DNA from: Candidatus Harpocratesius repetitus
Lineage (GTDB): Archaea; Asgardarchaeota; Lokiarchaeia; Sigyniarchaeales; Promethearchaeaceae
Assembly: GCA_021498095.1 (NCBI GenBank)
Contig: JAIZWK010000001.1
Location: 570,001-602,000 of the forward strand
Reading direction: 5' to 3'
DNA: 32,000 nt
The notes under the pieces: model-generated
The model's database searches: none
Told to the model about the DNA's origin: nothing
Seen by the model: only the letters and a program-made list of their open reading frames with translations
Shown: in pieces, positions 1 to 22,360 of the stretch
How positions within the stretch are numbered: the stretch's first letter is position 1
Layout: every line of letters starts with the position of its first letter
Position numbers and translations under genes: made by a program

Positions 1-3000
1 GCACAAGAGACAGAAAAATCCAAAATGGATGAAGAAATCACTTCTCAAAAATCAGAACTTTCAGCTAAAGAAGCAACTTTAAAAGCAACTGAAGAAAATT
101 TAAAACGGCTTCAGCAAAATATCGAGAAATTAGAAGATCTTCAGCAAAAACTGGAAGAAGGTCAAACTTATGATGATTTAATTAACAAAACAAAAGAAGA
201 AATTGAAAATCTTCAGCAAGCTTTAGATGAAAATTCAGGATTAATTGATGAAAATAAAGCGAAACAGAAAGAAGAAGAACAAATAATTGCACAAATAAAT
301 AATGAAAAAGCCCAAATTAATAAAGAAATCTCCAAAATCAAACAGGATGGTAAAGCTTTAACTACTGAAATCAAGCTTTTGGAAAAAACTATTAAAAAGA
401 ATGAGAAAAAGAGAGCTCAACTAGAAAAAGATTTGAAAAAGTTACAGAAAGACGCAGAAAGTGTAACTGAAGCGATGGAACAAGCAAAAAATGAAGCCAA
501 ATCCATTCAAGAAAAAATTTCAACATTGAAAAAGCAAATTACTGAGCAAAAATCACTACAAAAACAACTTGATGGAGAAATCCAAAAGCTAGAAGTAAAA
601 CGTGACAAATTTTCGAAATCACAAGCAGAAATTCAAGCTTCCATCTCTTCTGCAGGTGCAGAAATTAACATGCTTGAAACCCGTATACAAGAACTTGAAA
701 AGAAGAAAAAAGATTATAGAAACGAGTATGAAAAACTAACAAAAGGCCAAGCAGTTGAAGACCAAATCAAAACTTTAAAAGTCGAAGAAAAAGAAATCTC
801 ACAACAGTTAAAAAAGCTTAAAGAAAAACTTATTTCCGCAAATGATGAGCAAAAACGAAGTCAAAATAAACAAGAAACCTTGGAATTGAAACGACGAGCA
901 TTAGAAGGAGAATTGACCGACCTTGAAAAACGTCTTTCTGGATTACGTGTTGAACTAAAAACGGCAGAATCAGAACTTCATACTTCACAACGGGAAAAAC
1001 AACATAAAGATATTATCAAAGAAAATTTAATAAAAGAAATTACAATCCAAAAAGAACAAAAAGAGAAATTGCAAAATCAAGTTGAAAATTTTCAAGCTAA
1101 AATAAACCAAATGAAAAAAGAGCGCGCTAAACTTCAAGAAACAATTGATAAAAAGGAAGAAGAATATGGTCAAACTCAACTTGAATTAAACACAGTACTC
1201 GATAATCTAACGAATTTGATTCAAGATATTGATCGCTCTGCAGGTGATATCAAATCTGATATTCAAAATGTTAGTCAAGTTGCAATTGATGAATCAGGAA
1301 AAGTTTTCAAAGAATTTGTGCTCGATGTCACCGATATGTTGCGATCTATAGAAGAAATATCAGAAATGAATCCTGAAGATCCAAAAGAAATCCAGGAACA
1401 ACTGAATTTTGCAGTAAATACTTTAAAATTATTAATTGAAAATGCAGAACAACCACTAATTCAACTTAATGAAGTCGTTCAAGATGCTAGTGATGAAGCA
1501 TTAAAAGAATCTACTGGTAATTTCGATGGATTTATACAAGATTTTACAGATAAATTCGATTCAATTCGTGTTGCTTTACAAGCTGTCGCAGTAGCAGATA
1601 CATCAGAACATTATCGAGCATTAGAGGATCTGAATTCTGCTATTAGTTCCCAATCTGAAGAGCTCTCGAAAATATCAGTTCAGCTAACTCGAATCACAGC
1701 TCAACTGGAACAAAAAGAACGTGAATTATCACAAATCAATTCGGAATTAAAACAGTTACAAACAAAAATTGATGAAGCAGAGAAGAAATCTAAAATAGGT
1801 AAAAAAGAAAATGAAGAAAAAACCAAAAAATCTGAAGAAATAAAAGAAGAAATCGCAAAAATAACCTCCACAATTTTAGATATAAAAAAATCTTCTGAAA
1901 ATTTTTGGAAACATACAAAATCCCTACAAAATGAAATCGATAAAAAAGCAGAAATTCTTTCACAAATTACTGAAGATCTAAATAAATTGAGCAATGTAAA
2001 GCGATTGCTCGATGATATTGAAACAGCAGAACAAGATCAAACCCGATTACGAGATGAAATCAAAAATAAAAAACAGACAATTAAAGATCTTACTGAAAAA
2101 AGTAAAAATATCCAAAAGGATATTGATGCAAATCTTGAAGAAATTGCTAAAATTAAAACTAAACGAGAAAAAGCTGAAGATACTCGTAATGATATTCAAA
2201 CTCAAATCGATGAAGAAAATGAAAGACTTTCTGAAGTTAATGGAAGAATTAAAGATCTAGAAAATGTTCAAAAATTAATAACTGATATCGAAAACTTAAC
2301 AACAGAAATTGAAGAAAATACTGAAAAGATTGCAGAGAATACTAAACAGAATGAAATCTTGGAAGAAGATATTGCAAAACTTGAAAAAGATATTGAAAGT
2401 AAAAATAAATTGATTGAAGAGCACCAAACATCCAGACAATCATTGGAATCTGAAGAAAAAGAACTTCGCACTAAAACTAAAGAATTATCCACACAAATGA
2501 ATAATGTTGAAAAAATACTAGATAAACAACAACAGATGAAAGCACGGGAAGAAGAGATAGAAAATCTTAAGGATGAACAAGGTGAATTGGGCGATTTAAT
2601 AGCAGATTATCAAGAAGATATTCAAAAAATTACCGAAAATTTGATTTCTTTGGAAGAGACTCGTTCAAAACAAATTGAATCATTAAACGAATTACAATCG
2701 CAAAAAAATGAATCTTGGGAAAAACAAAAAGCACTTCGAGACGAGTTGGGCGATTTAAATGCAGACTTCTCCCGAAATACTGCTAAATTTAATGGATTAG
2801 AAACCCGGAAAATTGTAGTTGAAGAGAAAATTGATGAATTATTTGAAAAATCAAAGGATTACGGAACACTTCCACCAGTTACTGATGATCTTTCTGAAGA
2901 ATCCTTAAATCAAAAAATTGGTAAAGCCACAACAGAGAAAAAAGCATTAGAACCAGTAAATCTTAAATCAATTGAAGAATACGACCAAGTTAAGGAACGA

Positions 3001-3603
3001 TGGGACGAAATCGATATGCGCAGGCAAACATTGCAACGCGAAAGAAAAGCAATATTAGATTCAATCGATCGTATTGAATTAGAAAAAACTCGCAATTTTA
3101 TGAAAGCGTATCATGAAATTAATCGAGTATTTAGCTCTATCTTTCAAAAACTCTCTCCAGGTGGCTCAGCAAAGATGATTCTCGAAAATCCTGCACATCC
3201 ATTTGAAGGAGGGATTAGCATTGAAGCTCGTCCGCGTGGTAAGAAGATTTCTTCACTGGATATTCTTTCAGGGGGAGAAAAAACATTAGTTGCACTTTCT
3301 TTCATCTTTGCTATCCAAAACTTCTATCCTGCCCCATTTTATATTATGGACGAGATAGATGCTGCTCTTGATGGTCCAAATGTTTATCGCACTTCAATGG
3401 TTATCAAAGAATATGCTAGAACATCGCAATTCTTAGTAATTAGTCATCGTGAAGAAAATATTACAAACGCTGATAGAATTTATGGTGTCGCCATGAATGA
3501 TGGAATTACCGATATCTTTACCGTAAATTTGGAGGATGAAAAGAAGCGAGACGATTTTGAGACAGAAGTTGAAGTTGTTAAAGATGTTTCAGAATCACAA
3601 TAA
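1..3603 (+). CDS. smc: Chromosome segregation ATPase SMC, 5'-truncated by the window edge
   Basis: Frame is open from base 1 (AQETEKSK precedes the M at 25), so the true start is upstream. Long heptad-rich coiled coil, then PVNLKSIEEY (from 2953), ABC signature LSGGE (3265-3279), Walker B/D-loop DEIDAALD (from 3349) and H-loop SHR (3442). Followed directly by scpA and scpB. Walker A is not in the window. Confidence 0.93.
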   Translation, partial: AQETEKSKMDEEITSQKSELSAKEATLKATEENLKRLQQNIEKLEDLQQKLEEGQTYDDLINKTKEEIENLQQALDENSGLIDENKAKQKEEEQIIAQINNEKAQINKEISKIKQDGKALTTEIKLLEKTIKKNEKKRAQLEKDLKKLQKDAESVTEAMEQAKNEAKSIQEKISTLKKQITEQKSLQKQLDGEIQKLEVKRDKFSKSQAEIQASISSAGAEINMLETRIQELEKKKKDYRNEYEKLTKGQAVEDQIKTLKVEEKEISQQLKKLKEKLISANDEQKRSQNKQETLELKRRALEGELTDLEKRLSGLRVELKTAESELHTSQREKQHKDIIKENLIKEITIQKEQKEKLQNQVENFQAKINQMKKERAKLQETIDKKEEEYGQTQLELNTVLDNLTNLIQDIDRSAGDIKSDIQNVSQVAIDESGKVFKEFVLDVTDMLRSIEEISEMNPEDPKEIQEQLNFAVNTLKLLIENAEQPLIQLNEVVQDASDEALKESTGNFDGFIQDFTDKFDSIRVALQAVAVADTSEHYRALEDLNSAISSQSEELSKISVQLTRITAQLEQKERELSQINSELKQLQTKIDEAEKKSKIGKKENEEKTKKSEEIKEEIAKITSTILDIKKSSENFWKHTKSLQNEIDKKAEILSQITEDLNKLSNVKRLLDDIETAEQDQTRLRDEIKNKKQTIKDLTEKSKNIQKDIDANLEEIAKIKTKREKAEDTRNDIQTQIDEENERLSEVNGRIKDLENVQKLITDIENLTTEIEENTEKIAENTKQNEILEEDIAKLEKDIESKNKLIEEHQTSRQSLESEEKELRTKTKELSTQMNNVEKILDKQQQMKAREEEIENLKDEQGELGDLIADYQEDIQKITENLISLEETRSKQIESLNELQSQKNESWEKQKALRDELGDLNADFSRNTAKFNGLETRKIVVEEKIDELFEKSKDYGTLPPVTDDLSEESLNQKIGKATTEKKALEPVNLKSIEEYDQVKERWDEIDMRRQTLQRERKAILDSIDRIELEKTRNFMKAYHEINRVFSSIFQKLSPGGSAKMILENPAHPFEGGISIEARPRGKKISSLDILSGGEKTLVALSFIFAIQNFYPAPFYIMDEIDAALDGPNVYRTSMVIKEYARTSQFLVISHREENITNADRIYGVAMNDGITDIFTVNLEDEKKRDDFETEVEVVKDVSESQ

Positions 3604-3654: not shown

Positions 3655-4755
3655 ATGCCAGAAAAAAAAACTGCAGCGAAAAAATCTTCTAGAAAGAAGA
3701 CTACAAAAAGGAAAGGTTCAACAAAAAAAAAATCAAAGAAGACAACTAATTCAAAAAAAAAAAAAAAACAAGCAACTTTATCAACTCCAAAAGCACCAAA
3801 ATCGACTTCAAAGAAAACTTCAACAAAAAAGCCAAGGAAAAAAACATCAAAGAAGGTAAAAAATAGCACAACGAAAAAGAAAAAATCTTCATCTATTCCA
3901 AAAGAACCTGTGATAAAAGAAGTTATTTCGATTGGTGATGATATAGAAGAACAAGAGGTGAATAAGGGAGAAATACTAGAAGATGAACCCCAGATAAAGA
4001 AATGGTGGTTGGAGGAACCTTATCGCAGTCTGTTAGATCCCGATTTAGCAAAAACGGTAGATTTTACCAAATTTGATTTATCTTCGCTAATTGAAGATTT
4101 TACAGCGAAGATGGTGGCTGAAGAATTAATAGATTTTCGTATCTCTGGATTAGCAATATATTCTTCTGCTCAATTATATCATACGAAGATTACAGGAGTG
4201 ATAAAGCAAGAAGAGGAAATTCAAAAAGCAGAAATGCGTGAACGAATTCGTCGTCAAATTCCGAAAGCAATTGCACAGCCACTAAGAGAAGCACGTAAAA
4301 TTGCAACTTCTGAAGAACTTTTTGGTGCTATGCGTAGAGCTATTATAGAAACCATGCAAAAACGAGAAAAGCTAAGAATTCGCCGAGAGCAGCAAAAAGC
4401 AAAAAGAGAGAAGGAAGTAAAAAAAAGAGGTAAAGGAAGGCTTCCTGCGGAAATTCTCAAACATATAACAGGAAGTGAAGAAACTATTGAAGAACGACTT
4501 AAGAAACGGCATCGTCAATTAGTCGAAATTGTACGTATGGAAAATCCGCCTGATCGCACAATTTCAATGAATTATTTTAAAAAAATGATATATAGTGATC
4601 CAGAAAAGAAGTTATTGGAAAAGAAAGTTAAATATATTCAAACATTTGAGGAAATGCTATTTTTAGCATCACTGGGGAAAGTGGTTCTTCATCAAGATGA
4701 CACTGAATCACCATTATATATCAAATTAGTTGATCAAACCAGTATTGAATTCTAA
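3655..4755 (+). CDS. scpA: Kleisin ScpA with an 80-aa Lys-rich N-terminal extension
   Basis: IDFRISGLAIYSSAQLYHTK matches the archaeal ScpA N-domain; TFEEMLFLASLGKVVLHQ...PLYIKL matches the C-terminal winged helix. Lies between smc and scpB. SD-like GGGGAG upstream of the ATG. Confidence 0.85.
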   Translation: MPEKKTAAKKSSRKKTTKRKGSTKKKSKKTTNSKKKKKQATLSTPKAPKSTSKKTSTKKPRKKTSKKVKNSTTKKKKSSSIPKEPVIKEVISIGDDIEEQEVNKGEILEDEPQIKKWWLEEPYRSLLDPDLAKTVDFTKFDLSSLIEDFTAKMVAEELIDFRISGLAIYSSAQLYHTKITGVIKQEEEIQKAEMRERIRRQIPKAIAQPLREARKIATSEELFGAMRRAIIETMQKREKLRIRREQQKAKREKEVKKRGKGRLPAEILKHITGSEETIEERLKKRHRQLVEIVRMENPPDRTISMNYFKKMIYSDPEKKLLEKKVKYIQTFEEMLFLASLGKVVLHQDDTESPLYIKLVDQTSIEF

Positions 4756-4781: not shown

Positions 4782-5777
4782 ATGTCAGAAAAAGAAGAGA
4801 ATAAGAATGAAGATAAAGAAATATCTGAAAAATCAGAAGAAAAATCAAGTGAAATCCAAAACACAAATCAAAATGCGAGTTTAAATGATAATCAGAAGCC
4901 AGAAAGTAATAATAACTTAGAAGTATCTTTGGATAATGACAACGAATTCGATGATGAAATACTCTCAGACTTAGAAGAACTAGATGAAAGTTTAGATTTA
5001 CCCACAGAGAAAGAGGATAATGAAGAGATTGTTGAAGAAGAAGAGAAATTAGACACGATTGATGAAAATGTTCAATTAGAAAAAGATGAAAAAGTGGGAG
5101 AAGAAATAGATACTGAAGAAAAAATAGGAGAAGAAATAGATACTGAAGAAAGAATAGGAGAAAAAATAGATACTGAAGAAAGAATAGGAGAAAAAATAGA
5201 AGGAGAAGATGATGCTTTTCTAGATGAATCAAAAATTGCCCCAATGAGTGACGAAGAAGAAGCACATATCCATTTAAAAAATGTAGTCGAAGGTGCATTA
5301 TTTGTTGCGGGGCGCCCAGTCTCGTTAGAAGAGTTAAATGTGAAAACGGATATTAAAAAGCGGGATTTAGAAGCATTGTTGGATGAGTTAGCTATGGATT
5401 ATTTAATGCGTTCAACTGCTTTGGAAATAATTCGAATTCAAGATAAATACAGTCTGCAAATTAAACCTGAATATACTCCGCGAGTGAAAAAATTTGCCAG
5501 CGGTGGTTTAATTCCAGATGCAATACTGAAGACTTTGACCATCATAGCGCTAAAGCAACCTTTAATGAAATCTACTTTGGTAAAACTTCGCGGTTCTACT
5601 GCTTATGAACATGTGAAGTTTTTAATTGATAGAGGATATATTGAAGCAAGAAAAAAGGGACGTTCATCTGAATTATGTACAACAGATCAATTTGCAGATA
5701 CATTTGGTTTGTCAAGAGATATTGAAACTCAAAAAAAGCAATTAATTGCACAATTAGGTGTCCAAGATGGGAAATAA
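4782..5777 (+). CDS. scpB: SMC-Scp complex subunit ScpB with a ~160-aa acidic N-terminal extension
   Basis: VEGALFVAGRPVSLEEL, YSLQIKPEY, TLTIIALKQP, KLRGSTAYEHVKFLIDRGYI and TTDQFADTFGL are typical ScpB tandem winged-helix motifs. SD GAGGT upstream. Confidence 0.93.
   Translation: MSEKEENKNEDKEISEKSEEKSSEIQNTNQNASLNDNQKPESNNNLEVSLDNDNEFDDEILSDLEELDESLDLPTEKEDNEEIVEEEEKLDTIDENVQLEKDEKVGEEIDTEEKIGEEIDTEERIGEKIDTEERIGEKIEGEDDAFLDESKIAPMSDEEEAHIHLKNVVEGALFVAGRPVSLEELNVKTDIKKRDLEALLDELAMDYLMRSTALEIIRIQDKYSLQIKPEYTPRVKKFASGGLIPDAILKTLTIIALKQPLMKSTLVKLRGSTAYEHVKFLIDRGYIEARKKGRSSELCTTDQFADTFGLSRDIETQKKQLIAQLGVQDGK
5088..5200 (+). repeat. In-frame 30-bp tandem repeat (~3.8 copies) encoding GE(E/K)IDTEE(K/R)I
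   Basis: Unit ggagaagaaatagatactgaagaaaaaata at 5097-5126, with near-identical copies at 5127-5156 and 5157-5186 and partial copies on both sides. No spacers. Confidence 0.95.
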
Positions 5778-5848: not shown

Positions 5849-6994
5849 CTATCTCCCTTCATCGAGATTTAGATTTTTCCAGTAATCAGGTATGAAAATT
5901 GCACGATTTTGCTCAAAACTATCCACAATACCACGTGTAATAGCGAATGATTTAATTGCATCTTTAAAATTGGTTTGAGGTTGTAATTTCCCACAAGATT
6001 CAATTCCTTGATAAAATTCTTCTAAAAGGAATAGTTCTGAGGAATAATTTTGTGCATTGTATTCCACATCTGAAGTAATGGGAATCTCAGTCGTGTGATA
6101 TTTAAATCCTTCAGGATCCTCAAATTCAGTTAACGAGAGCTGTTTTTCTTTGTTTTTCTCAAATAAATTGATTTCGCCCTCCTCACAATTAAGATCTAAA
6201 CGATGATATAATTCTCCTTTCTTTTGCCAATCGCCTCTATATGTTGCGTAAATCCAGTTATCAGGATTATAATAATCTTCTGGGCGCGCTAAGGCAAGAA
6301 TCGCAAACGTGGTTGAAGATCCTTTAAAGTACGAAAAGCTTGGTTTAAAGTTCACTCCACCTTGAACTTGTACCACATCCATCTCTGTAAGATATCTAAT
6401 TAAGTCTAAATGGTGGGGTGCCATATCTTCTAAAAATAGATCGCGTAGCCATCGGCGCCACCCTTGACGTGTTTTTCCCCAATTGTACAGATAAGTAAGA
6501 TTCAATGATGTGATAGATTTTAGCGAATCTTTGCGTTCAAGGTAAGTTTTCTTTACAGACCAATTATGGGGAAAGAAACGAGTTTGAGTTCCGACAGCAG
6601 TGCATAATTCTGGATATTTTGCTGCAGTTTTTACCATTTCACGCGCTTGAGAAATTGTACTTGCCATATTTTTTTCGCTTAACACATTTAAGCCGAGATC
6701 CAGAGCTTCCATGGATAATACATGATGAGTATAAGTAGGAGTAACTAAAATTGCGAGATCATAAGGCCCTTTGCCGAATTGGATTGCTTCTTCCATGGAA
6801 GTAAAACATTCACCTTTTGGAATCCCCCATATTTTCGGAGCATGCTCCAATTTATCGGTATTTGTATCAACAACGGCCCCGATTTCCCACCGTGGATGGG
6901 TTTCTATTGCTTTTCGCCAAACATGGGCATGTCCGCCAATTCCAACAATTAACGCACGTTTTTTTCTGGATTTTGCAGAATGATTCAGATTCAT
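5849..6994 (-). CDS. Gfo/Idh/MocA-family NAD(P)-dependent oxidoreductase
   Basis: N-terminal Rossmann motif ALIVGIGGHA; LNVLSEKNMA (EKP-type motif); DMAPHHLDL (D-x3-H-x2-D). Substrate unknown. Confidence 0.88.
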   Translation of the reverse strand: MNLNHSAKSRKKRALIVGIGGHAHVWRKAIETHPRWEIGAVVDTNTDKLEHAPKIWGIPKGECFTSMEEAIQFGKGPYDLAILVTPTYTHHVLSMEALDLGLNVLSEKNMASTISQAREMVKTAAKYPELCTAVGTQTRFFPHNWSVKKTYLERKDSLKSITSLNLTYLYNWGKTRQGWRRWLRDLFLEDMAPHHLDLIRYLTEMDVVQVQGGVNFKPSFSYFKGSSTTFAILALARPEDYYNPDNWIYATYRGDWQKKGELYHRLDLNCEEGEINLFEKNKEKQLSLTEFEDPEGFKYHTTEIPITSDVEYNAQNYSSELFLLEEFYQGIESCGKLQPQTNFKDAIKSFAITRGIVDSFEQNRAIFIPDYWKNLNLDEGR

Positions 6995-7096: not shown

Positions 7097-8995
7097 ATGG
7101 GGAAGAATATTTCTTCAGCGCCGTTCTTTCGCATTTTACTAATAGATGGATATATCGATGAACCCGGATGTTTAGGTGTTCCTCCGTTTTTAGCACCTCT
7201 ACCTAGATATATTGCAGGAGCGATCCATACAGCTGAAGAAATGGGAAATATTCAATCTGAATTCTTATATCGAACAATTGATCAATTTCGCAGTCAGAAA
7301 ATTGAATTACTACAATCTCAGATAGATATTGTAATATTTTTATCCGGAGTAACCGTTCCTGGAAAATATTTAGGAGGAACGCCAATCAGTTTTCGAGAAT
7401 TACGAGATTTTTCAAAATTATTTCAGAATTCATTTTCTATATTGTGTGGTCCTGCCGCCAAATATGGGATTGGTGAAGGTGGTGGGCGAGCTAGTCGGCA
7501 AACGGAGAATTTACGGTTAAATTTCAATTTAATTCTCTATAATGATGCAGAATGGGCAGTATTCAAATTGTTTTCACAATATTTAGAAACCCTAACTAAG
7601 ATAATTCAAGAAATAAGAAATAATCAAAATAATAGAGACAATCAAAGAAAACAAAACGAGCAGTCTTTAGTGCGATTTCAAGGCGATCAAACCTTTAGAA
7701 CTTCTCAGATACTTCAACCACTTCAAACACTTGAAAAACTAAGGCGTCCTTCTATTCATTCAATTCAATCTTTTGCAATAAGAGCTCCATCACAGTTAAT
7801 TCATCAACATCCAAATTTCAAACAGGAACCGAAAGGAAATCTTATTTGTGAGATCGAAACATTTCAAGGTTGTCCACGCTATCGAACCGGAGGATGTAGA
7901 TTTTGCATTGAACCCTTAAAAGGTCAGACACAACACCGAAAAATTGATGATGTTGTGGAAGAAATATATGAATTATATAAAACAGGTGTTAGGCATTTTC
8001 GCCTTGGCGCCCAAACAGATTTTTATGCATTTCATCATGGAAAGTATCTTCATCCTAAATATCCTAAACCCAATCCAGCAGCTATTCGGAAATTACTGAG
8101 TCAAATTTGGGAAAAATGCCCAGATCTTAAGACACTGCATATCGATAATGTAAATGCATTAAATTTCTCATTATATCCTAATGAAGCAGTTGAAATTACT
8201 AAATTAATTGTTGAGTTCTGTACTGAAGGTAATATTGCAGCAATTGGAGTTGAATCAGTAGATCCCACAGTTATTCGCGCCAATAATCTAAAAGCAACTG
8301 CGGATGAAATTGAAAATGCAATTGCTGTAATTAATCAATTTGGTTCTAAAGTAGGAAAGAATGGAAATGCATTATTTCTTCCTGGATTAAACTTCATTAT
8401 GGGTCTTCCTGGAGAATCGATCGAAAGTTTGCAGCAAAATTATGAATTCTTGCAAAAAATTTTAAAAAAAGGTTATTTGGTTCGACGGATAAATTTAAGA
8501 AAATTCCTGGTTCCCTCCACTATGAATCCTTCTACTCAAAAGTGGGTTCTTAAGCATATAAAAAAATTTCAAAGCAAATATTTCCATTGGAAAGCAGATA
8601 TTCGAATTAATATTGATCTCCCATTATTAAAAGGATTATATCCCTTTGGACGCATTTTAAAGCAAGTTTATGCCGAAAAGCACGATGGAAATGGAACTTT
8701 AGCACGGCAAGTTGGAACTTATCCAATTAGATGTTTTATTCCAAAAAAAATACATTTATATCGATTCTATGATTTAGTGGTGGTAAATCATGGTTCTCGC
8801 TCACTAATTTGCTTAGTATTACCTGTAGATCTTACTAATTTAAGTAGAAAAGAATTAGAAGCAATTGATGGCATTGGAAAGAACCGTGCTCAAGCGATTC
8901 AATTAAAAAATCCAAAAACAGAAAAGGATTGGTCTCAAATGGATGAGAAAATCCGCGAAATTCGTCGTATATTGAAAAATAATAACGAAATATGA
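7097..8995 (+). CDS. Radical SAM protein with C-terminal helix-hairpin-helix (COG1031-like)
   Basis: N-terminal IDGYIDEPGCLGVPP; cluster motif CPRYRTGGCRFC (Cx7Cx2C); FRLG, GVES and NFIMGLPGES core motifs; LEAIDGIGKNRAQAI HhH near the C-terminus. Confidence 0.85.
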   Translation: MGKNISSAPFFRILLIDGYIDEPGCLGVPPFLAPLPRYIAGAIHTAEEMGNIQSEFLYRTIDQFRSQKIELLQSQIDIVIFLSGVTVPGKYLGGTPISFRELRDFSKLFQNSFSILCGPAAKYGIGEGGGRASRQTENLRLNFNLILYNDAEWAVFKLFSQYLETLTKIIQEIRNNQNNRDNQRKQNEQSLVRFQGDQTFRTSQILQPLQTLEKLRRPSIHSIQSFAIRAPSQLIHQHPNFKQEPKGNLICEIETFQGCPRYRTGGCRFCIEPLKGQTQHRKIDDVVEEIYELYKTGVRHFRLGAQTDFYAFHHGKYLHPKYPKPNPAAIRKLLSQIWEKCPDLKTLHIDNVNALNFSLYPNEAVEITKLIVEFCTEGNIAAIGVESVDPTVIRANNLKATADEIENAIAVINQFGSKVGKNGNALFLPGLNFIMGLPGESIESLQQNYEFLQKILKKGYLVRRINLRKFLVPSTMNPSTQKWVLKHIKKFQSKYFHWKADIRINIDLPLLKGLYPFGRILKQVYAEKHDGNGTLARQVGTYPIRCFIPKKIHLYRFYDLVVVNHGSRSLICLVLPVDLTNLSRKELEAIDGIGKNRAQAIQLKNPKTEKDWSQMDEKIREIRRILKNNNEI

Positions 8996-9496: not shown

Positions 9497-11029
9497 TTAA
9501 AAATTGTTTCTTGCTTCTTCTACTAAATTAGTCACTTTTTCATCTAAACCAGAAAGAATTGAAGATAATTCAGCTTTAACTTCATTCTTAAATTTTTCAT
9601 CTTTAATTGCAGGTAAATTAATTTCCACGTTCAAAGCTGCTGATTTTAAACCGGTTAAAGCATTCATAGCACCAACAGCTATATCTGAAAGTGCATTTTT
9701 ATTTCCTTTTAATCCAATGTCTAAAAGGATATTTAAAACGGATTTACATGTTTTCACAGTCTCTAATGGGACCAAAGCAGCATTCTTATATTCTTCTTGG
9801 ATTTTTGCAGAACGGAGTGATTTTTCTTCTTCAGTTTCCTTTGGTAATTTAAAGGCTTTCATTACACCATTAAAAGCATTAGCATCTTTATCAATAAGCA
9901 AAGTCAGTTGATGATGTAATTGATCTAATTCTTTTACTTTTTCTGAGAAATAATCAGAAACATCTTCATATCCTTTCTTTCCAATGGTTAAGCGAGAGAC
10001 CATTGCTCCAAGAGCCGCTCCCATCGAACCTGCAACACAAGCAACTGAACCTCCACCTGGTGCGGGTGAATCTGATGCAAGTTCTTTGATAAATCCTTGA
10101 ACAGACAAGTTTTTCAATTCTGCTTTTTCATTTCGAGATACTTCTTCTAATTTTTTCTCGATAACTTGATTTCGCTCCCACTTATCATTTAGTTGAAGAT
10201 AAAATTCAGAAGCATCTAAAAGAGCATCAACTGGAATCATACCATAAACTTCTGTCTCAGTAATCATTACACCATAACGTGCAGCTTCTCTCCGGACAGT
10301 TTCAACAACCATGTGCATTGGCGTTTCTTTATAATTGGTTAAATTCATGGAAACTTGAACATACGGTTTGGTTTCAAAGCCCATTGATTTTACATATCGA
10401 AATCCACCATTTTTGTGGCGAATATTAACTCCGATCCTTTTTGCAATTTCAACATTGTCTGTATTCAAATAGATATTATAAGCAATTAAAAATTCTCGGG
10501 CACCGATTACGGTAGCACCAGCCTTGGGTAATTCTGAAGGGCCAAAATCGGGTTTACGATCAGGATTTGTTTTAATTTCTTCCTTCAGGCCTTCATATTG
10601 ACCTTTTCGAATATTAGCTAAATTCACCCTATCAGGTCGAGTAGCTGCAGCTTCATAAAGATAAGTTGGAATCCCCAGTTCAGATGAGACTTTTTCAGCT
10701 AATTTTCGGGCTAATTCCGCACATTCTTCTAAAGTTATGCCAGAAACAGGTACAAAAGGCACAACATCAGTGGCACCAATTCGTGGATGTTCTCCAGAAT
10801 GCTTATCCATATTAATTAATTCAGCAGCGATCTTTATTCCTGCAAATGCTGCATTAAAACAAGCATCCGGTTCACCCACCATGGTAACAACCAGGCGATT
10901 ATGGTCAGGATCTGCACGAGCGTCGAGTACTTTAGCCGAACCTGCAGATTTTAAGGCATTTAAAATTTTATCAATAACTTCTTGATTTCGCCCTTCACTA
11001 AAATTAGGTACTAATTCAACTAATGGCAT
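9497..11029 (-). CDS. ftcD: Bifunctional glutamate formimidoyltransferase / formimidoyl-THF cyclodeaminase
   Basis: VPNFSEGR, DPDHNRLVVT and HPRIGATDVVPF (transferase); ELASDSPAPGGGSVA and NALSDIAVG (cyclodeaminase). Adjacent to hutH and hutU. Confidence 0.94.
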   Translation of the reverse strand: MPLVELVPNFSEGRNQEVIDKILNALKSAGSAKVLDARADPDHNRLVVTMVGEPDACFNAAFAGIKIAAELINMDKHSGEHPRIGATDVVPFVPVSGITLEECAELARKLAEKVSSELGIPTYLYEAAATRPDRVNLANIRKGQYEGLKEEIKTNPDRKPDFGPSELPKAGATVIGAREFLIAYNIYLNTDNVEIAKRIGVNIRHKNGGFRYVKSMGFETKPYVQVSMNLTNYKETPMHMVVETVRREAARYGVMITETEVYGMIPVDALLDASEFYLQLNDKWERNQVIEKKLEEVSRNEKAELKNLSVQGFIKELASDSPAPGGGSVACVAGSMGAALGAMVSRLTIGKKGYEDVSDYFSEKVKELDQLHHQLTLLIDKDANAFNGVMKAFKLPKETEEEKSLRSAKIQEEYKNAALVPLETVKTCKSVLNILLDIGLKGNKNALSDIAVGAMNALTGLKSAALNVEINLPAIKDEKFKNEVKAELSSILSGLDEKVTNLVEEARNNF

Positions 11030-11197
11030 AATAGATCACACAATAAGCATAAAGTGATTGGTATCATTATGAATTTGAGATGAAATTAAAATGATCCGCC
11101 CACATTAATGGAGACTTTTAGGCAAAATTTTCACCTTTAATTTAGTGATGAAATTTTAAATTCAGATATATCTCTAAATAAAAAAAGGGGATTAAAA

Positions 11198-12736
11198 TTA
11201 ATCAAATTGAGCAATTTCCAAAAGTTTTTTCGAGCGAACGATTTCTGCACCTTTCTGTAAATGATAAGAAAGAATTTCATCATTCTCAATAAATGGAATA
11301 AAATTTCGAACATATGCATAACATTTTTCTACTTTTTCAGTACTTTTTAATGGGCGACGTAAATCAATAGCTTGGCAGGCGCTCACTAATTCAATTCCAA
11401 GAATTTGTTCTAAATTGTTAATAATGCGCAAAGTTTTACGAGCGGCAATTGATCCCATCGAAACTAAATCTTCCACTCCATTACTGGTAGGAATTGAATC
11501 AGCACTAGCTGGAAAACACATTGTTTTATTCTCACTTGCAAGAGCTGCTGTACAATACTGTGCAATCATGAAACCTGAATTCAAGCCAGATCCTTTTATT
11601 AAATAAAGAGGGAGTCCATATTCTCCAGTTTCTCCTAAAAGAAGATAAACACGCCGATCTGAGATATTGCCTAATTCTGATGCAGCTAACCCTGCATAAT
11701 CTAAGGGTAGAGCTAAAGGTTCTCCATGAAATCCACCGCCAGAAATAGCAATTGGCTCATCTCCATCCGTAAATACATTTGGATTATCTGTTACGGAATT
11801 AATTTCTCGAATTACAATTTTTTTAAGGTGTTGTAATGCATCATGGCAAGCACCATGAATTTGCGGCATACATCTAAAGGAATAGGGATCCTGCACTCGA
11901 GTACATTCTTTGTGAGACTCTACAAATCCAGAACCTGTAAGTAATTCACGAAGGTGTCGTGCTACTATCTGAGCCCCTGGATGAGGTCTAACTTCGTGTA
12001 ATCGTGGATCGAATGGTGCAATAGAGCCAAGATATCCTTCTAAACTTAATGCTCCTATAAGATCTGCATGATTGACACAATTTTCCAACCGCTCAACGAC
12101 TTTTATAGCATGTGCAGCAATAAATTGAGTACCATTTATTAAACCCAATCCTTCTTTTGCACCTAGTGATATTGGTTTCATCCCATGCTCTTGAAGTACA
12201 TTCCCCGCAGGGATGTATGTCTTACCACCATCTTTTGTGATTTCCCCCAATCCAATTAAAGGAAGGAATAAATGAGCCAATGGACATAAATCTCCCGATG
12301 CTCCCACAGATCCTTGTTCAGGGACCTTTGAAATATAATCCATATCAATATGCCACATGATTCGCTCAATTAAATCGAGGGACACTCCACTATATCCTTG
12401 AGACAAGGCATGAACCTTTAGAATCATCATTAATTTGGCAATATCAGTATCGATTGGTTTCCCTACTCCTACACTATGAGACTTTAGTAAGTTTTCTTGT
12501 AATGTTCCTGCATCTTCTTTTGAAATTTTTGTTGTACATAATGAACCGAAACCTGTATTTATAGAATAAATAGGTTTATTTCCCTGTGCCAATTTTTGAA
12601 CAGCATCATAACATCGAGTTATTTTAAGTTTTGCTTCATCACTCAAAACTCCTTTTATTTCACCTGAACAAATTTTCAAAGCTTTTGTGATATCCATTTG
12701 ATCTATTCCATATTGAAAAATTTGCAGTTTTACCAA
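11198..12736 (-). CDS. hutH: Histidine ammonia-lyase
   Basis: INTGFG, MIO-forming GSVGASGDL, KEGLGLING, RVQDPYSFRCMPQIHGA, NSVTDNP, GGGFHGEP and NSGFMIAQY. TTG start at 12736. Confidence 0.97.
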   Translation of the reverse strand: MVKLQIFQYGIDQMDITKALKICSGEIKGVLSDEAKLKITRCYDAVQKLAQGNKPIYSINTGFGSLCTTKISKEDAGTLQENLLKSHSVGVGKPIDTDIAKLMMILKVHALSQGYSGVSLDLIERIMWHIDMDYISKVPEQGSVGASGDLCPLAHLFLPLIGLGEITKDGGKTYIPAGNVLQEHGMKPISLGAKEGLGLINGTQFIAAHAIKVVERLENCVNHADLIGALSLEGYLGSIAPFDPRLHEVRPHPGAQIVARHLRELLTGSGFVESHKECTRVQDPYSFRCMPQIHGACHDALQHLKKIVIREINSVTDNPNVFTDGDEPIAISGGGFHGEPLALPLDYAGLAASELGNISDRRVYLLLGETGEYGLPLYLIKGSGLNSGFMIAQYCTAALASENKTMCFPASADSIPTSNGVEDLVSMGSIAARKTLRIINNLEQILGIELVSACQAIDLRRPLKSTEKVEKCYAYVRNFIPFIENDEILSYHLQKGAEIVRSKKLLEIAQFD

Positions 12737-12858
12737 CCCCGTTTATTTTGTACTTTCCTCAAAATTAAAATTTATTTAAATGGGTTCAAATGGGGAAGAT
12801 TTATTTCATCGAGCCCAAACTTTTTATGGAGATATACCTTCTTTTCTAAACGAGAATC

Positions 12859-14859
12859 ATGTCAAACGAGATTATTAATGTTCAATTATCATCAGAATTA
12901 CCACCAGATCCTGAATTTGATCCTCAATATCGAAGAGCTCCTAATCGAGGGTATAATTTAAATAAAGAAGAAACGAAAATTGCTTTAAAAAATGCACTTC
13001 GTTACATTCCAGAGAATTTACACGAAAAATTGGCACCAGAGTTTTTAGAAGAATTAAAAACACGGGGAAGAATTTATGGATACAGATATCGCCCACAAGG
13101 ATCGATAAAAGGTAAACCTATCGATGAATATAAAGGAATTTTAGAAGCAAGAGCAATTCAAGTTATGATTGATAACAATTTGGATTTTGATATTGCACTT
13201 TATCCTTATGAATTAGTTACATATGGAGAATCCGGTCAAGTCTGTCAAAATTGGATGCAATATAGACTAATCAAGAAATACTTGGAAATCATGAAGGAAG
13301 ATCAAACACTTGTGGTTATGTCTGGCCATCCTCTTGGTTTATTTCCAACTAAAAGAGATGCACCTAGAGTAATTTTCTCAAATGGATTAATGATTGGAAT
13401 GTATGACAACCCAGAGGATTTTCATCGTGCTCAAGCATTAGGCATAGCAAATTATGGACAAATGACTGCAGGTGGTTGGATGTATATTGGACCTCAAGGA
13501 ATTGTACATGGAACCTATATCACCTTGTTAAATGCAGGAAGATTGTATCTTGGTAAAAAGGCTGATGAAGATCTGACAGGTGTGTTATACATTAGCTCAG
13601 GATTAGGGGGAATGAGTGGAGCACAACCAAAAGCCGCTGATATTTCAGGAGCGATCAGCATTGTTGCTGAAGTTGATAAATCTCGTATTGATACCCGATA
13701 TGAGCAGGGATGGGTTTCGCGAGTCTCAAGCAATTTAGAGGAAATATTCCAATGGGTTGAAGAATATCGAACTAAAAAGGAACACTTATCAATTGCATAT
13801 CACGGCAATATCGTAGATTTATGGCAATATGTAGTAGATCATGATATTAAGGTTGAATTGGCTTCAGATCAGACCAGCTGTCATGCAGTATATGAAGGTG
13901 GATACACTCCAGTAGGAATCACTTTTGAAGAAGGTAGAGAATTACTTAAATCAAATCGTGCTAAATTTAAGCAATTAGTGGATGAATCTTTAAAGAAACA
14001 GTTTGAATTAATTCAAATTATGAGTAATCGGGGAACTAAATTTTGGGATTATGGTAATTCATTTTTAAAAGCTGTTTTTGATGCTGGTGCAAAAAATATT
14101 GCCAAAAATGAAGATGCTCGAAATGGTTTTATATTTCCATCCTATGTAGAAGATATAATGGGTCCTATCTGTTTTGATTATGGATATGGCCCATTTCGCT
14201 GGGTTTGTCTTAGCGGAAAACACAGCGATTTAATTTTAACAGATCAGACTGCCATGAAATGCATTAATCCTAACCGCCGGGCTCAAGATCGAGATAATTA
14301 TGTCTGGATTCGCGATGCAGAGAAAAACAAATTAGTTGTTGGAACTCAAGCCAGAATATTATATGCTGACGGCCCAGGCAGAGTAAAAATAGCGAAAGCA
14401 TTTAATCAATTAGTTCGGGAAGGTAAAATCGGTCCTGTCATGCTAGGTCGTGATCACCATGATGTCTCTGGAACCGATAGCCCATTCCGTGAAACATCCA
14501 ATATTAAGGATGGGAGTAATATTATGTCAGAAATGGCACATCATTCTTGGGCAGGAAACGTTGCGCGAGGAATGACCATGTGTGTTTTATCTAACGGAGG
14601 AGGAGTGGGTACTGGAAAAGTAATAAATGGAGGATTCGGTTTAGTGCTAGATGGGAGTTCACGTGTCGATACAATTATTGAGATGGCTTTAGATTGGGAT
14701 GTTCATTCAGGAATAGCGCGTCGCGCATGGGCTCGTAATCCACATGCAATAGAAACAGCAAAGGAATGGAATGAACGTAATAAAAGAAAAGGGCATATCA
14801 CAATGCCATTTTTAGCAAGCGATAAATTGATTGAAGAAATTATAGAAAAATCTTTGTAA
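12859..14859 (+). CDS. hutU: Urocanate hydratase, long (~670 aa) form
   Basis: YGQMTAGGWMYIGPQGIVHGT, GLGGMSGAQP, SDQTSCH, FWDYGN, GRDHHDVSGTDSP and SNGGGVG. N-terminal RRAP...ALKNALRY extension. Confidence 0.97.
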   Translation: MSNEIINVQLSSELPPDPEFDPQYRRAPNRGYNLNKEETKIALKNALRYIPENLHEKLAPEFLEELKTRGRIYGYRYRPQGSIKGKPIDEYKGILEARAIQVMIDNNLDFDIALYPYELVTYGESGQVCQNWMQYRLIKKYLEIMKEDQTLVVMSGHPLGLFPTKRDAPRVIFSNGLMIGMYDNPEDFHRAQALGIANYGQMTAGGWMYIGPQGIVHGTYITLLNAGRLYLGKKADEDLTGVLYISSGLGGMSGAQPKAADISGAISIVAEVDKSRIDTRYEQGWVSRVSSNLEEIFQWVEEYRTKKEHLSIAYHGNIVDLWQYVVDHDIKVELASDQTSCHAVYEGGYTPVGITFEEGRELLKSNRAKFKQLVDESLKKQFELIQIMSNRGTKFWDYGNSFLKAVFDAGAKNIAKNEDARNGFIFPSYVEDIMGPICFDYGYGPFRWVCLSGKHSDLILTDQTAMKCINPNRRAQDRDNYVWIRDAEKNKLVVGTQARILYADGPGRVKIAKAFNQLVREGKIGPVMLGRDHHDVSGTDSPFRETSNIKDGSNIMSEMAHHSWAGNVARGMTMCVLSNGGGVGTGKVINGGFGLVLDGSSRVDTIIEMALDWDVHSGIARRAWARNPHAIETAKEWNERNKRKGHITMPFLASDKLIEEIIEKSL

Positions 14860-15531: not shown

Positions 15532-15668
15532 ATCATTAAATTAATTATATCTATAAAAAAACCGAAATAGCAACTCACTTAAATTCTTAAAGAATAATTT
15601 TATTAATTATTCAATTGCGATAACGAATTATTTATGTAAAAACTTTAACCATTAATGAAGTGAGACTA

Positions 15669-20665: not shown

Positions 20666-22360
20666 TTATTGAAGATTTACGTCAACGGAACTAAAATCGA
20701 GATTTGCAAGAATCTGGGAGAAATTTGAAAATATTGATACATTTCCGCTAAAATTCTCAATATATACCTCATATGTTTCATAAAATTTTTGATTTATGAT
20801 TTTCAAAATTTGCTGAATTTGCTTTTCAGGAGTTGAATATAATGAACGTCCTAAAATGTAAAGATTTTCCCGAGGTTCTACATATATAGTATAACGGTTA
20901 TTACCAATTACAAATGAATTTAATGAATCTTCTGCAATTTCTTGTGAAATTGACTGGAGAGCACTCACAAATCCTCCAAACAGTGAAGGATTTATATCCA
21001 TATCGGGATGGAAGGAAAAGAGTTCAATCCCTGTTTGCGTAAAAATCCACAAATCTTTTAAGGGCCCTGTTGACTTAGTCGATATAAGATTAGGCGATTG
21101 AATATTTATTTTAGCTTCTTCAAATTTTTTCTGATAATATTCTTGGTTATCCTTATCTTGAATTTGAGCATATATTTGTACGATAAGTGAAAGAGTATTT
21201 AATTCTTCTTGAATAGTAATTTCTTTTTTTTGGTATGTATTTAGCGCAGTAAATAACTGTTTTAATGCTGAATCATATTCTTCCAAATGAAATAGGGCAT
21301 TTCCAAGCGAATATTGAAATTCTGCAATCACATCTTGATCTATATATACGTACTGGCTGAATAATTCAAGCGTATGGAAAAGAAGGGAGATAATTTCTTG
21401 ATAACGATTTAAGGATTCATAGTAATGCACCAAATTGCGAATAAGAGATATCATTTTTGGAAAATCATGTAATTCTTCAGTTATTTCTATTGCTTTTTGC
21501 AAATAATGTATTTGTAAAGTTGAATCTCGGAGAAATCCATAAATATTGGCAATTATCCGGAATATCTCAACTTGATTGGCTTTTTCTTCCAATCTTTCCC
21601 ATATTTCGATAGACTTAAGATAATATTCTATTGATTGATTAATTCTATGATTAAATTGATCTCTGTGAAAAATCTCAAATCCTTGCTGTTTAATTTCTTG
21701 GAGATTAAACGAAAAAAATCCATTCCCAATTTCTGCATAAATCTGGGCTAATTGGGCAAAATCACTTCGTTTTTTCTGACTATTCACATTATTTTGCCCC
21801 ATGCTCTGATTTGAATGAAGAATTGCCTTAGTAGCTTGAATTAATAAAATTATTCCATCTTCATAATTCTTTAGGTGAATTAATGAACGACCTGTAAAAA
21901 TAATCAAATGGATCGAGTTAATATATTGAGAATTTTCAGGGGTTAACTTTTTAAAAAATTCTACAGCATCTGAATAGTGTTCAAGTTTATACTGGAGAAA
22001 TCCCATATTAAAGATCGCTTGCTGCCAATATTGGGGGCTATTTAACTTACTAGCCATAAATTCAACTGTTTGAAAATGAAGGAATGCTTCACTGTAGCGG
22101 TTCATCTGCATGTAAATATTTCCAAGTAAATATTCACATTCTAAAACTAATTTGGCTTGATTTTCAGATTGGAATTTTGATAGGGCATGTTGAATAGGGT
22201 TAAGTGCGAGCTTCCATTTCTTACTCTTATAATATGCAATTCCTCGCTTTAAATCAGATACCGCTGTAGTTAATGAATAATGGGGATCTAATTGAATAGG
22301 GGCATTTTGTAGGTTCATTTTCGATTGTTGATAAGGAAGAGATTGTTCTGAATTTTCCAT
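20666..22360 (-). CDS. TPR-repeat protein with C-terminal longin-like domain
   Basis: TPRs such as EYLLGNIYMQMNRYSEAFLHF and QYSLGNALFHLEEYDSALKQL. C-terminal DLWIFTQTGIELFSF...PSLFGGFVSALQSIS...FSGNVSIFSNF. Confidence 0.82.
   Translation of the reverse strand: MENSEQSLPYQQSKMNLQNAPIQLDPHYSLTTAVSDLKRGIAYYKSKKWKLALNPIQHALSKFQSENQAKLVLECEYLLGNIYMQMNRYSEAFLHFQTVEFMASKLNSPQYWQQAIFNMGFLQYKLEHYSDAVEFFKKLTPENSQYINSIHLIIFTGRSLIHLKNYEDGIILLIQATKAILHSNQSMGQNNVNSQKKRSDFAQLAQIYAEIGNGFFSFNLQEIKQQGFEIFHRDQFNHRINQSIEYYLKSIEIWERLEEKANQVEIFRIIANIYGFLRDSTLQIHYLQKAIEITEELHDFPKMISLIRNLVHYYESLNRYQEIISLLFHTLELFSQYVYIDQDVIAEFQYSLGNALFHLEEYDSALKQLFTALNTYQKKEITIQEELNTLSLIVQIYAQIQDKDNQEYYQKKFEEAKINIQSPNLISTKSTGPLKDLWIFTQTGIELFSFHPDMDINPSLFGGFVSALQSISQEIAEDSLNSFVIGNNRYTIYVEPRENLYILGRSLYSTPEKQIQQILKIINQKFYETYEVYIENFSGNVSIFSNFSQILANLDFSSVDVNLQ

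Follow-up and report, generated by a model that had tools for sequence, protein, structure and literature searches.

A long smc gene precedes kleisin and ScpB genes

We analyzed a 32,000-nt stretch of the Candidatus Harpocratesius repetitus genome, referred to here as the window (GCA_021498095.1, contig JAIZWK010000001.1, positions 570,001 to 602,000 of the forward strand). The open reading frame (ORF) listing and translation place the 5′-truncated gene of a long SMC protein at nt 1 to 3603 (+), in a frame that is open from the first base and encodes 1200 aa, namely, aa 288 to 1487 of the full protein. The complete ORF is 1487 aa long and starts 861 nt 5′ of the window (G000:C1:569140; L002:7140). 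The 287 aa that the window cuts off comprise the N-terminal head, with its Walker A motif, and the initial ~115 aa of the coiled-coil arm. A first-pass annotation of the window had described a long coiled coil lacking a Walker A or CxxC motif in this frame, and the translation confirmed it. The annotation had also proposed, as the first of two alternatives, that the hinge lies upstream; the upstream sequence supplied the Walker A motif at aa 33 to 40 and otherwise head and coiled coil, with no hinge (PF06470), which disproved this alternative.

An assembly duplication, which had been raised as a possible source of the extra length, was ruled out by recurrence. The H. repetitus ORF is free of stops, and ORFs of ~1480 to 1515 aa with the same apex block (see below) were present in >100 genomes of the order, closed genomes included. 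A shorter form of the long SMC, of ~1300 aa (1296 aa), occurs in one family of the order (f4). The architecture of the long SMC is thus not an assembly artifact.

Two further genes follow on the same strand. The first (nt 3655 to 4755, +) encodes a 366-aa protein that was assigned as a ScpA-like kleisin based on an ortholog profile, gene order, and its atlas neighbors. Its product had no match in Pfam; a profile of six orthologs matched PDB entry 6ivh_A, “Segregation and condensation protein A” (E = 3.4e-4), and PF02616 was found on 25 to 89% of the members of the atlas neighbors. The kleisin begins with a Lys-rich N-terminal tail of ~85 aa. The second gene (nt 4782 to 5777, +) encodes a 331-aa ScpB kite subunit (PF04079, 116 bits; TIGR00281, 100.6 bits, above the cut-off) that carries an acidic N-terminal extension of ~160 aa. 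The order long smc, kleisin, ScpB was kept in five of the six genomes checked, and no kleisin or ScpB match was obtained at E 1e-5 downstream of the long smc gene of genome G178. This gene neighborhood suggests that the operon kleisin and ScpB are the putative partners of the long SMC.

The ATPase heads group with those of canonical SMCs

Both halves of an SMC-type ATPase head were found in the long SMC. The N-terminal half contains the Walker A sequence GPNGNGKS and the Q-loop residue Q146. The C-terminal half, delimited by translation (nt 2902 to 3603, +; aa 1255 to 1487, stop codon included), contains the signature LSGGEK (nt 3265 to 3282, +; aa 1376 to 1381), the Walker B motif (nt 3337 to 3360, +; aa 1400 to 1407), and the H-loop residue H1436. 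The columns of all five elements were invariant across 12 homologs.

SMC_N (PF02463) was the only Pfam family matched by the long SMC (172.7 bits). The protein scored above the cut-off of TIGR02168 (592 versus 567 bits) and below that of the archaeal-type model TIGR02169 (633 versus 729 bits), and both matches were broken into four to five pieces that skipped the hinge. Its C-terminal head is 43% identical, over 201 aa, to that of the genome's own canonical SMC, and a longer BLASTP alignment, which runs into the arm, showed 31% identity over 504 aa. In a tree of the heads, the long forms made up one short-branched clade (support of 100) that fell within the canonical Asgard SMCs, and the genome's 1188-aa SMC5/6-like paralog was placed in the other clade, apart from the long SMC. 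Since the tree was based on 405 columns and a single-matrix model, its deep placements are provisional. We rejected an identity as an archaeal SMC5/6-related SMC, given that the long SMC heads sit in the canonical clade.

The combination of SMC-like heads, a long antiparallel coiled coil, and a small non-globular apex is also seen in Rad50/SbcC, and partial matches to Rad50, RecN, and the archaea-specific SMC-related protein ASRP (NF045487) could be traced to the heads and coiled coil that these proteins have in common; a globular hinge is missing from the long SMC, as it is from Rad50. However, these scores were far under the respective cut-offs (115 versus 1087 for the best-scoring Rad50 model and 44 versus 408 for RecN), and ASRP was rejected as an identity at 149 bits versus a cut-off of 300. 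The full-length protein contains no CxxC hook, its only cysteines being C30 and C47 in the N-terminal head, and a kleisin and ScpB adjoin it instead of Mre11. Given also the nesting of its heads within canonical Asgard SMCs and the stop-free ORF of conserved length, we consider it very improbable that the gene encodes a repair ATPase related to SMC, whether Rad50/SbcC-like or of another kind, or that it reflects an assembly or annotation artifact.

A duplicated helical hairpin is predicted in place of the hinge

The hinge is regarded as a defining part of SMC complexes, important for dimerization and DNA binding and perhaps as a gate for DNA; in canonical prokaryotic Smc, a protein of ~1200 aa, it has an α/β fold. 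The first-pass annotation had recognized no hinge in this frame, and neither Pfam nor hhalign produced a hinge profile match in the middle part of the long SMC. PF06470 gave no match there even at E ≤ 10, and comparison of this part with an Asgard canonical SMC hinge profile by hhalign returned a probability of 0.4%. When the SMC5/6-like paralog was used as a positive control, the same profile returned a probability of 98.5% (E = 4e-15). Across the genome, PF06470 was found only in two other genes. The matches that Pfam listed for the middle part at E ≤ 10 were coiled-coil noise (e.g., ATG17 and BLOC1_2). PF24161, which appears in precomputed annotations of homologs, corresponds to CCDC39, a generic coiled-coil family, and had no match in this genome.

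The middle is instead occupied by a block previously described as non-heptad and helical and located at roughly aa 390 to 540 of the window frame (nt 1186 to 1650). This block proved to be real and spans window aa 398 to 548 (nt 1192 to 1644, +; aa 685 to 835 of the full protein). It is acidic, with 11 K/R versus 32 D/E and a net charge of −21, is all-helical in AF2 predictions, and is the most conserved region of the protein outside the heads. Its hydrophobic content is 41 to 42%, versus 27 to 31% in the arms, with conserved a/d/e-type hydrophobic stripes, and the E/K/Q/R fraction drops within it from 0.4–0.57 to 0.17–0.29. The sole prolines between aa 157 and 1245 (P745, P748, and P772) all lie in this block, and no conserved Gly-rich motif was found in it.

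The block is an internal duplication of one helix. Repeat A (nt 1195 to 1359, +; aa 686 to 740) and repeat B (nt 1411 to 1575, +; aa 758 to 812) aligned in hhalign with a probability of 97.7% (E = 1.7e-12, 55 columns), and their pairwise score of 57 compares with 27 ± 5 for shuffled sequences, none of 2000 reaching 57. Repeat B has a predicted kink near P772. A predicted tip loop containing P745 and P748 (nt 1366 to 1383, +; aa 743 to 748) separates the repeats; it is a loop in both AF2 models and marks the exact midpoint of the 1487-aa protein. Since the apex block is centered on the protein in this way, it takes the place of the hinge, and this position, along with the lack of a hinge upstream, supports the second alternative of the first-pass annotation, i.e., that a central helical block replaces the hinge.

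Structure prediction was consistent with this arrangement. AF2 modeled aa 560 to 960 as helices only, folded back into an antiparallel hairpin (pLDDT, 83.7) whose flanks exceeded 90; aa 561 to 741 formed one helix, with pLDDT >90 up to about aa 670. The tip alone, modeled from a 37-sequence alignment, was likewise a long helical hairpin (pLDDT, 76). Confidence in the tip was moderate (pLDDT, 62 to 76), and the two models disagreed on where the helices break; neither predicted a β-strand in aa 560 to 960. The longer model matched antiparallel hairpins (the MukB elbow, dynein stalk, Rad50, and chemoreceptors), and Foldseek PDB/VIA-align searches with the tip model returned generic helical hairpins only (the Smc5/6 arm, YscO, cohesin elbow, Rad50 hook coiled coil, and chemoreceptors). 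Superposition of the AF2 models on Rad50 coiled-coil and hook fragments was at background level. Since the tip matches, at Z ~11, lie within the background of helical models, no specific fold relative can be named. Modeling of two copies of the tip (aa 640 to 870) without an alignment scored 0.03, a value that carries no verdict for or against binding.

PF06470 detects SMC5/6-type hinges weakly, the paralog in this genome scoring just 23.9 bits, so a canonical hinge might have diverged far enough in the long SMC to be missed by sequence profiles. Profile-profile comparison nevertheless recovered the weak hinge of the paralog and not the middle of the long SMC, and the strand-free models, the lack of a conserved Gly-rich motif, and the duplication of a single helix are all at odds with an α/β hinge. 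We therefore find a highly divergent canonical hinge scarcely credible. Taken together, these sequence comparisons and models indicate that the globular hinge is absent and that an all-helical, duplicated hairpin tip is predicted in its place. The tip, being strongly acidic, cannot stand in for the surface with which canonical hinges are described as binding DNA.

The coiled-coil arms are probably lengthened in modules

The N-arm of the long SMC (about aa 175 to 685) measures 510 aa and the C-arm measures 420 aa, compared with ~350 and ~320 aa in the genome's own canonical SMC. The arms are thus ~1.3 to 1.5 times as long as those of the canonical protein, and not ~3 times the normal length as had been proposed. 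The distal N-arm (nt 1 to 1191, +; aa 288 to 684) was delimited by heptad contrast, charge profile, and AF2, and the C-terminal coiled-coil arm (nt 1645 to 2901, +; aa 836 to 1254) was delimited by the heptad profile and an AF2 helix at aa 822 to 959. The long antiparallel coiled coil is predicted by AF2 for aa 560 to 960, and heptad and charge profiles suggest that it continues through the remaining arm.

Two C-arm modules of ~90 aa (nt 1816 to 2334, +; aa 893 to 975 and 983 to 1065) are duplicates: hhalign aligned them at an offset of 90 aa with a probability of 97.2% (E = 3.6e-11, 83 columns), with reversed controls at ≤36 bits. Two ~97-aa modules in the N-arm (nt 388 to 972, +; aa 417 to 514 and 515 to 611) may be a tandem duplication, the evidence being weak (hhalign score, 42.8, versus up to 36 for reversed controls). 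Module pairs other than the two in the C-arm scored 38 to 46, slightly over the reversed controls (≤36), and we count them as weak. When compared with the 1296-aa protein of family f4, the long SMC has an extra ~96 aa that map to aa 505 to 685 in the N-arm and an extra ~90 aa that map to aa 835 to 968 in the C-arm. As one element of the explanation that we prefer, it is on balance probable that the arms were lengthened by modules of ~90 to 98 aa, roughly one superhelical period of the coiled coil. Natural and engineered SMC arm lengths have been reported to be quantized in steps of ~91 to 99 aa, with a natural mode of 515 aa (PMC5344682).

The long SMC is widespread in its order

Asgard archaea are the closest prokaryotic relatives of eukaryotes. 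Among the 153 genomes of the order that we searched, 130 encode the long SMC, in ORFs of ~1300 to 1500 aa, including that of the cultured Lokiarchaeum ossiferum; by family, the carriers numbered 13 of 13, 1 of 1, 114 of 135, and 2 of 4. Outside the order, the tip profile matched in 3 of 246 genomes (G063, G039, and G011). The G063 match is probably mis-binned, since it lies on an 8.6-kb contig and its heads are identical to those of a long-clade protein.

A strong canonical hinge was detected in 13 of the 94 order genomes that are ≥90% complete. The other 81 had only the weak hinge of a ~1150-aa SMC5/6-like paralog or no hinge; since no strong canonical hinge was found in them, the long SMC is apparently their only condensin-type SMC. 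The H. repetitus genome encodes three smc-kleisin-kite sets: a hinge-bearing canonical set with ScpB, an SMC5/6-like set, and the long hinge-less set. Given that the canonical SMC is retained in this genome, the long SMC could be specialized here rather than housekeeping.

The tip module recurs in a family with an H1-like tail

The tip module was also found twice, in tandem, in a separate non-SMC family of ~925 to 1180 aa whose members have a β-rich middle and a Lys-rich, H1-like tail. The member in this genome is 1041 aa long (G000:C1:3819996-3823121, minus strand). This second occurrence is equally compatible with docking of a partner and with self-association. With the architecture unchanged, the long SMC could also be read in another way, its tip presenting an acidic surface on which basic partners dock and its dimer being held only by arm-arm contacts, heads, and kleisin. 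Candidate partners would be the Lys-rich N-terminal tail of the operon kleisin, histones, and the H1-tailed family. The net charge of the tip, the kleisin tail, the acidic extension of ScpB, and the tandem modules in the H1-tailed family are all in keeping with such a role. In contrast, the conserved hydrophobic stripes suggest buried helix-helix packing over a purely electrostatic surface. Moreover, the tandem-module proteins were detected in family f1 alone, whereas the hinge-less SMC is order-wide, so they cannot be the general partner of the tip. We regard a docking tip that does not self-dimerize as unlikely, though clearly deserving of consideration.

Discussion

We favor, with modest confidence, the explanation that the long SMC serves as the SMC subunit of a condensin-type Smc-ScpA-ScpB complex that is functional, with a helical hairpin in place of the hinge, tips that dimerize, and lengthened arms. 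According to this model, each chain would turn back at aa 743 to 748, and its N- and C-arms would run antiparallel in a shared coiled coil of ~80 nm, as estimated from residue counts. The terminal halves would build a normal ABC-type SMC head, to which the kleisin and ScpB would bind. The hydrophobic, acidic tip would do the structural job of the hinge, two tips associating hairpin against hairpin in a four-helix bundle that closes the dimer at the apex. The complex would then load onto DNA and translocate at the expense of ATP, as ordinary Smc-ScpAB does. We infer both the tip-tip dimerization and the DNA-motor activity.

The long SMC resembles the canonical Smc-ScpAB systems of B. subtilis and Pyrococcus (TIGR02168/TIGR02169) in its head halves with all motifs, its long antiparallel arms, the ScpA-like kleisin and ScpB in its operon, and the nesting of its heads among canonical Asgard SMCs. 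It differs in lacking PF06470, in having an apex made of two duplicated helices that form an acidic hairpin, and in its dimensions (arms of 510/420 versus ~350/320 aa; total of 1487 versus ~1200 aa). Another parallel is B. subtilis Smc(Zh), a chimera described as functional in which the zinc hook of Pyrococcus Rad50 takes over from the hinge (Buermann et al. 2017, PMC5344682). Both are SMCs in which an unrelated apex stands in for the hinge, and the ~90- to 98-aa arm modules fit the rule reported in the same work that only arm lengths differing by steps of ~91 to 99 aa are tolerated. Unlike Smc(Zh), the long SMC is natural, has no zinc hook and no arm cysteines, and carries a different, duplicated helical apex.

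We found no description of a hinge-less SMC in the literature on Asgard archaea or Lokiarchaeia, the only case encountered being the “hinge-less” variants of marine Actinobacteria, which were recovered from metagenomes and have SMC-type heads, an antiparallel coiled coil, and no CxxC (Environ Microbiome 2025, PMC12153180). Going by their description, those variants belong to another domain and have no reported lengthened arms, duplicated tip, or kleisin-kite operon. “Three SMC complexes” have been noted in some Asgard archaea, the third being ascribed to an SMC5/6-related duplication (van Hooff et al., bioRxiv 10.1101/2024.01.07.573240). A count of three smc-kleisin-kite sets, including an SMC5/6-like one, also holds for H. 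repetitus, whereas the extra complex described here belongs to the canonical, condensin-type branch. Hinge loss is not mentioned in the searchable text of that preprint or of Yoshinaga & Inagaki 2021 (PMC8665677).

A bolder extension of the favored model, which we consider quite doubtful, is that in most Lokiarchaeales the hinge-less SMC is the main chromosome-organizing motor and its acidic, duplicated tip is a new kind of SMC apex that both closes the dimer and couples the complex to basic chromatin proteins. The H1-like tail of the kleisin and, in this family, the H1-tailed tandem-module protein would be candidate couplers. If true, this would tie an SMC motor to linker-histone-like proteins in a way specific to Asgard archaea. 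In any event, the occurrence of the tip module in an H1-tailed protein offers a fresh clue to what the tip binds.

The long hinge-less SMC is a natural counterpart of engineered hinge swaps, and its ~90- to 98-aa arm modules are a natural case of quantized arm length, in which the ~1300-aa proteins of one family and the ~1487-aa proteins of the remaining families represent two steps of the series. The coexistence of canonical, SMC5/6-like, and hinge-less complexes in H. repetitus makes their division of labor open to study. Since most members of the order show no sign of a hinge-bearing canonical SMC, the hinge-less SMC presumably suffices by itself, and a whole Asgard order with a strongly conserved condensin-type SMC that lacks a hinge offers a natural test of hinge function.

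The long smc gene and its operon

The reading frame at window positions 1-3603 is already open where the window begins, and the whole window (G000:C1:570001-602000) lies within one 4.36-Mb contig. When the upstream DNA was fetched (L002), the start of the ORF was found 861 nt upstream of the window, at L002:7140, giving a product of 1,487 aa. The 287 aa encoded outside the window comprise the head half at the N-terminus and ~115 aa from the start of the coiled coil; this head half carries the Q-loop (Q146) and the Walker A motif (GPNGNGKS, aa 33-40), which the first-pass annotation had rightly found missing from the window. The C-terminal head carries the LSGGEK signature, Walker B, and the H-loop. 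Pfam assigned SMC_N (172.7 bits) and no hinge to the protein, TIGR02168 scored above its cut-off (592 bits), TIGR02169, at 633 bits, fell short of its cut-off (729), and the Rad50, RecN, and ASRP models scored far under theirs. The nearest named homologue, from Candidatus Harpocratesius sp., is 95% identical over aa 600-900 and 96% identical over the full length, and the Lokiarchaeum ossiferum orthologue (1,505 aa) is encoded on a 6,035,313-bp chromosome.

The next gene (window 3655-4755) encodes a 366-aa ScpA-like kleisin. It had no Pfam match; a profile of six orthologues matched the N-domain of an archaeal ScpA (6ivh_A, E 3.4e-4), and PF02616 occurs in its atlas neighbours. The gene after it encodes ScpB (window 4782-5777; PF04079, 116 bits). 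The Smc-ScpAB-type operon is intact and conserved, with the order smc-kleisin-scpB retained in five of the six genomes compared. The N-terminal tails of the two partners have opposite charges inside one complex: that of the kleisin (~85 aa, window 3655-3909) is basic and Lys/Ser/Thr-rich, and the ~160-aa extension of ScpB (window 4782-5261) is acidic with short repeats.

The operon is flanked by genes for several large proteins with TPR repeats and for one protein of 914 aa without a Pfam family (window 15660-17669 and 20666-22360; upstream, L002:2099-4180 and L002:4256-7000). The window also holds a gene for a GFO/IDH/MocA-type oxidoreductase (5849-6994), followed on the opposite strand by one for a 632-aa radical SAM protein (7097-8995), and a histidine-utilisation cluster (9497-14859) of formiminotransferase-cyclodeaminase (9497-11029, minus), a histidine ammonia-lyase-type aromatic amino acid lyase (11198-12736, minus), and urocanase (12859-14859, plus).

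A duplicated helical hairpin occupies the hinge position

The suspicion that this SMC has no recognisable hinge was confirmed. PF06470 had no match in the middle part of the protein even at E ≤ 10, and a six-frame hinge search of the genome found matches only in two other genes. When aa 600-900 of the long family were compared by hhalign with a hinge profile built from 20 canonical Asgard SMCs, the probability was 0.4%, versus 98.5% (E 4e-15, 150 columns) for the positive control, the weak hinge of SMC5/6-like paralogues. Since the only two cysteines of the long SMC both lie within the N-head, a zinc hook is also absent, in keeping with the lack of a CxxC motif reported from the window.

The long SMC instead ends in a duplicated helical hairpin. 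This tip block (aa 685-835, window nt 1192-1644) differs sharply in composition from the arms: its E/K/Q/R content falls to 0.17-0.29, its hydrophobic content is 41% versus 27 to 31% in the arms, and all prolines of the stretch from aa 157 to 1245 (P745, P748, and P772) fall inside it. Apart from the heads, it is the best conserved region of the protein. Repeat A (aa 686-740) aligned with repeat B (aa 758-812) with a probability of 97.7% (E 1.7e-12), and their pairwise score was matched by 0 of 2,000 shuffles; the block is an internal duplication. An AlphaFold2 model of aa 560-960 (12 sequences; pLDDT 83.7) contained only helices, with a loop at aa 742-747 and further breaks close to aa 768 and aa 820, and Foldseek matched it to hairpins of antiparallel coiled coil (MukB elbow, dynein stalk, Rad50, and chemoreceptors). 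The region aa 670-850, modelled separately (37-sequence alignment; pLDDT 76), was again a long helical hairpin, with no specific structural relatives above the helical background. With a turn exactly halfway along the chain (aa 743-748), repeat A is predicted to pack antiparallel onto repeat B. The first-pass proposal that a central helical block replaces the hinge thus holds, the all-helical segment lying at the chain midpoint and being free of hinge matches.

Because the tip is strongly conserved, carries hydrophobic stripes that are themselves conserved, and resembles globular proteins in hydrophobicity, we infer that it may shut the SMC dimer through hairpin-hairpin packing. The main rival reading is that the acidic tip, which has a net charge of -21, docks basic partners rather than closing the dimer.

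Dimer closure by paired hairpins has a possible parallel in a second family. Seven representative proteins and a 1,041-aa protein of this genome (G000:C1:3819996-3823121, L009:5996-9121, minus strand; modules at aa 73-223 and 329-475) carry two tip modules in tandem near the N-terminus, followed by a beta-rich region, coiled coil, and an H1-like tail rich in Lys. All lack an SMC head, and homologues (920-1180 aa) were seen only in this genome's family. By analogy with the proposed pair of SMC tips, the two hairpins of one such chain might form a four-helix bundle.

The arms are extended in modules

With head boundaries set by alignment to head queries, the N-arm spans aa 175-685 (510 aa) and the C-arm aa 835-1255 (420 aa), or ~570 and ~510 aa up to the turn; at 0.15 nm per residue, an arm up to the turn would measure roughly 80 nm. 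Against ~350 and ~320 aa in the canonical SMC of this genome (1,206 aa), and with only 287 aa upstream of the window, the suggestion of an arm about three times normal length with its hinge upstream can be dismissed. In another family of the order (f4), a shorter hinge-less SMC with an identical type of tip (~1,296-1,300 aa; P0044, G280, and G281) has arms of 414 and 330 aa, each shorter by one 90- to 96-aa step, and the difference maps adjacent to the tip. Within the long SMC, aa 893-975 are repeated at aa 983-1065 (probability 97.2%, E 3.6e-11), and a weaker pair lies in the N-arm (aa 417-514 and 515-611). This stepwise pattern fits that of B. subtilis Smc, whose arms function only at lengths in ~91- to 99-aa steps; natural Smc arms have modal lengths of 238, 341, and 515 aa, and a B. 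subtilis chimera with a zinc hook in place of the hinge is functional (PMC5344682).

Origin and distribution of the hinge-less SMC

The two head halves were concatenated (49 sequences, 405 columns) for a maximum-likelihood tree (LG+F+G4) that has the SMC5/6-like clade as its root. In this tree all long forms fall into a single clade (support 100), whose internal branches are short and in which the f4-type 1,296-aa protein branches first. The clade nests among canonical Asgard SMCs, adjoining that of family f16 (support 95) and, next, the order's own (support 90). From this tree we read the long SMC as a probable duplicate of canonical SMC that lost the hinge and afterwards gained arm modules; the deep placements need better models.

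The tip profile had 40 matches in all among 1.84 billion representative proteins. Among 400 genomes of the phylum, the tip was present in 13/13 genomes of this family (f1), 1/1 of f2, 114/135 of f3, and 2/4 of f4, versus 3/246 outside the order, where at least one of the three matches looks mis-binned. Two or three SMC complexes have been described in Asgard archaea (bioRxiv 10.1101/2024.01.07.573240; PMC8665677) and hinge-less SMCs in marine Actinobacteria (PMC12153180); the searchable literature on Asgard SMC complexes and hinge-less SMCs does not describe the long-armed hinge-less Asgard architecture.

The genome under study is among the minority of the order keeping three SMC sets: the hinge-less one; the canonical one (G000:C1:1712176-1715796, L005:6176-9796; TIGR02169, 828 bits; hinge, 111 bits), followed by a gene for a 196-aa ScpB; and an SMC5/6-like one (1,188 aa; G000:C1:1238999-1242565, L006:5999-9565), downstream of which lie genes for a 268-aa protein and a 186-aa kite-like protein. 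A strong canonical hinge (90 to 121 bits) was found in 13 of 94 genomes of the order with completeness ≥90%, 11 times within SMC-length ORFs (about 1,000-1,207 aa). The other two, in genus g14, are in ORFs of 238 to 247 aa (90 to 100 bits; G161:C72:87110-87448 and G162:C96:12793-13134) that may represent either what is left of a canonical smc gene in decay or hinge proteins that stand alone. Since the remaining 81 genomes have only the 23- to 43-bit hinge of a ~1,150- to 1,170-aa SMC5/6-like paralogue, or none, the hinge-less SMC is the sole condensin-type SMC found in most of the order. Its complex would act as a DNA-loading, translocating motor like other Smc-ScpAB complexes.
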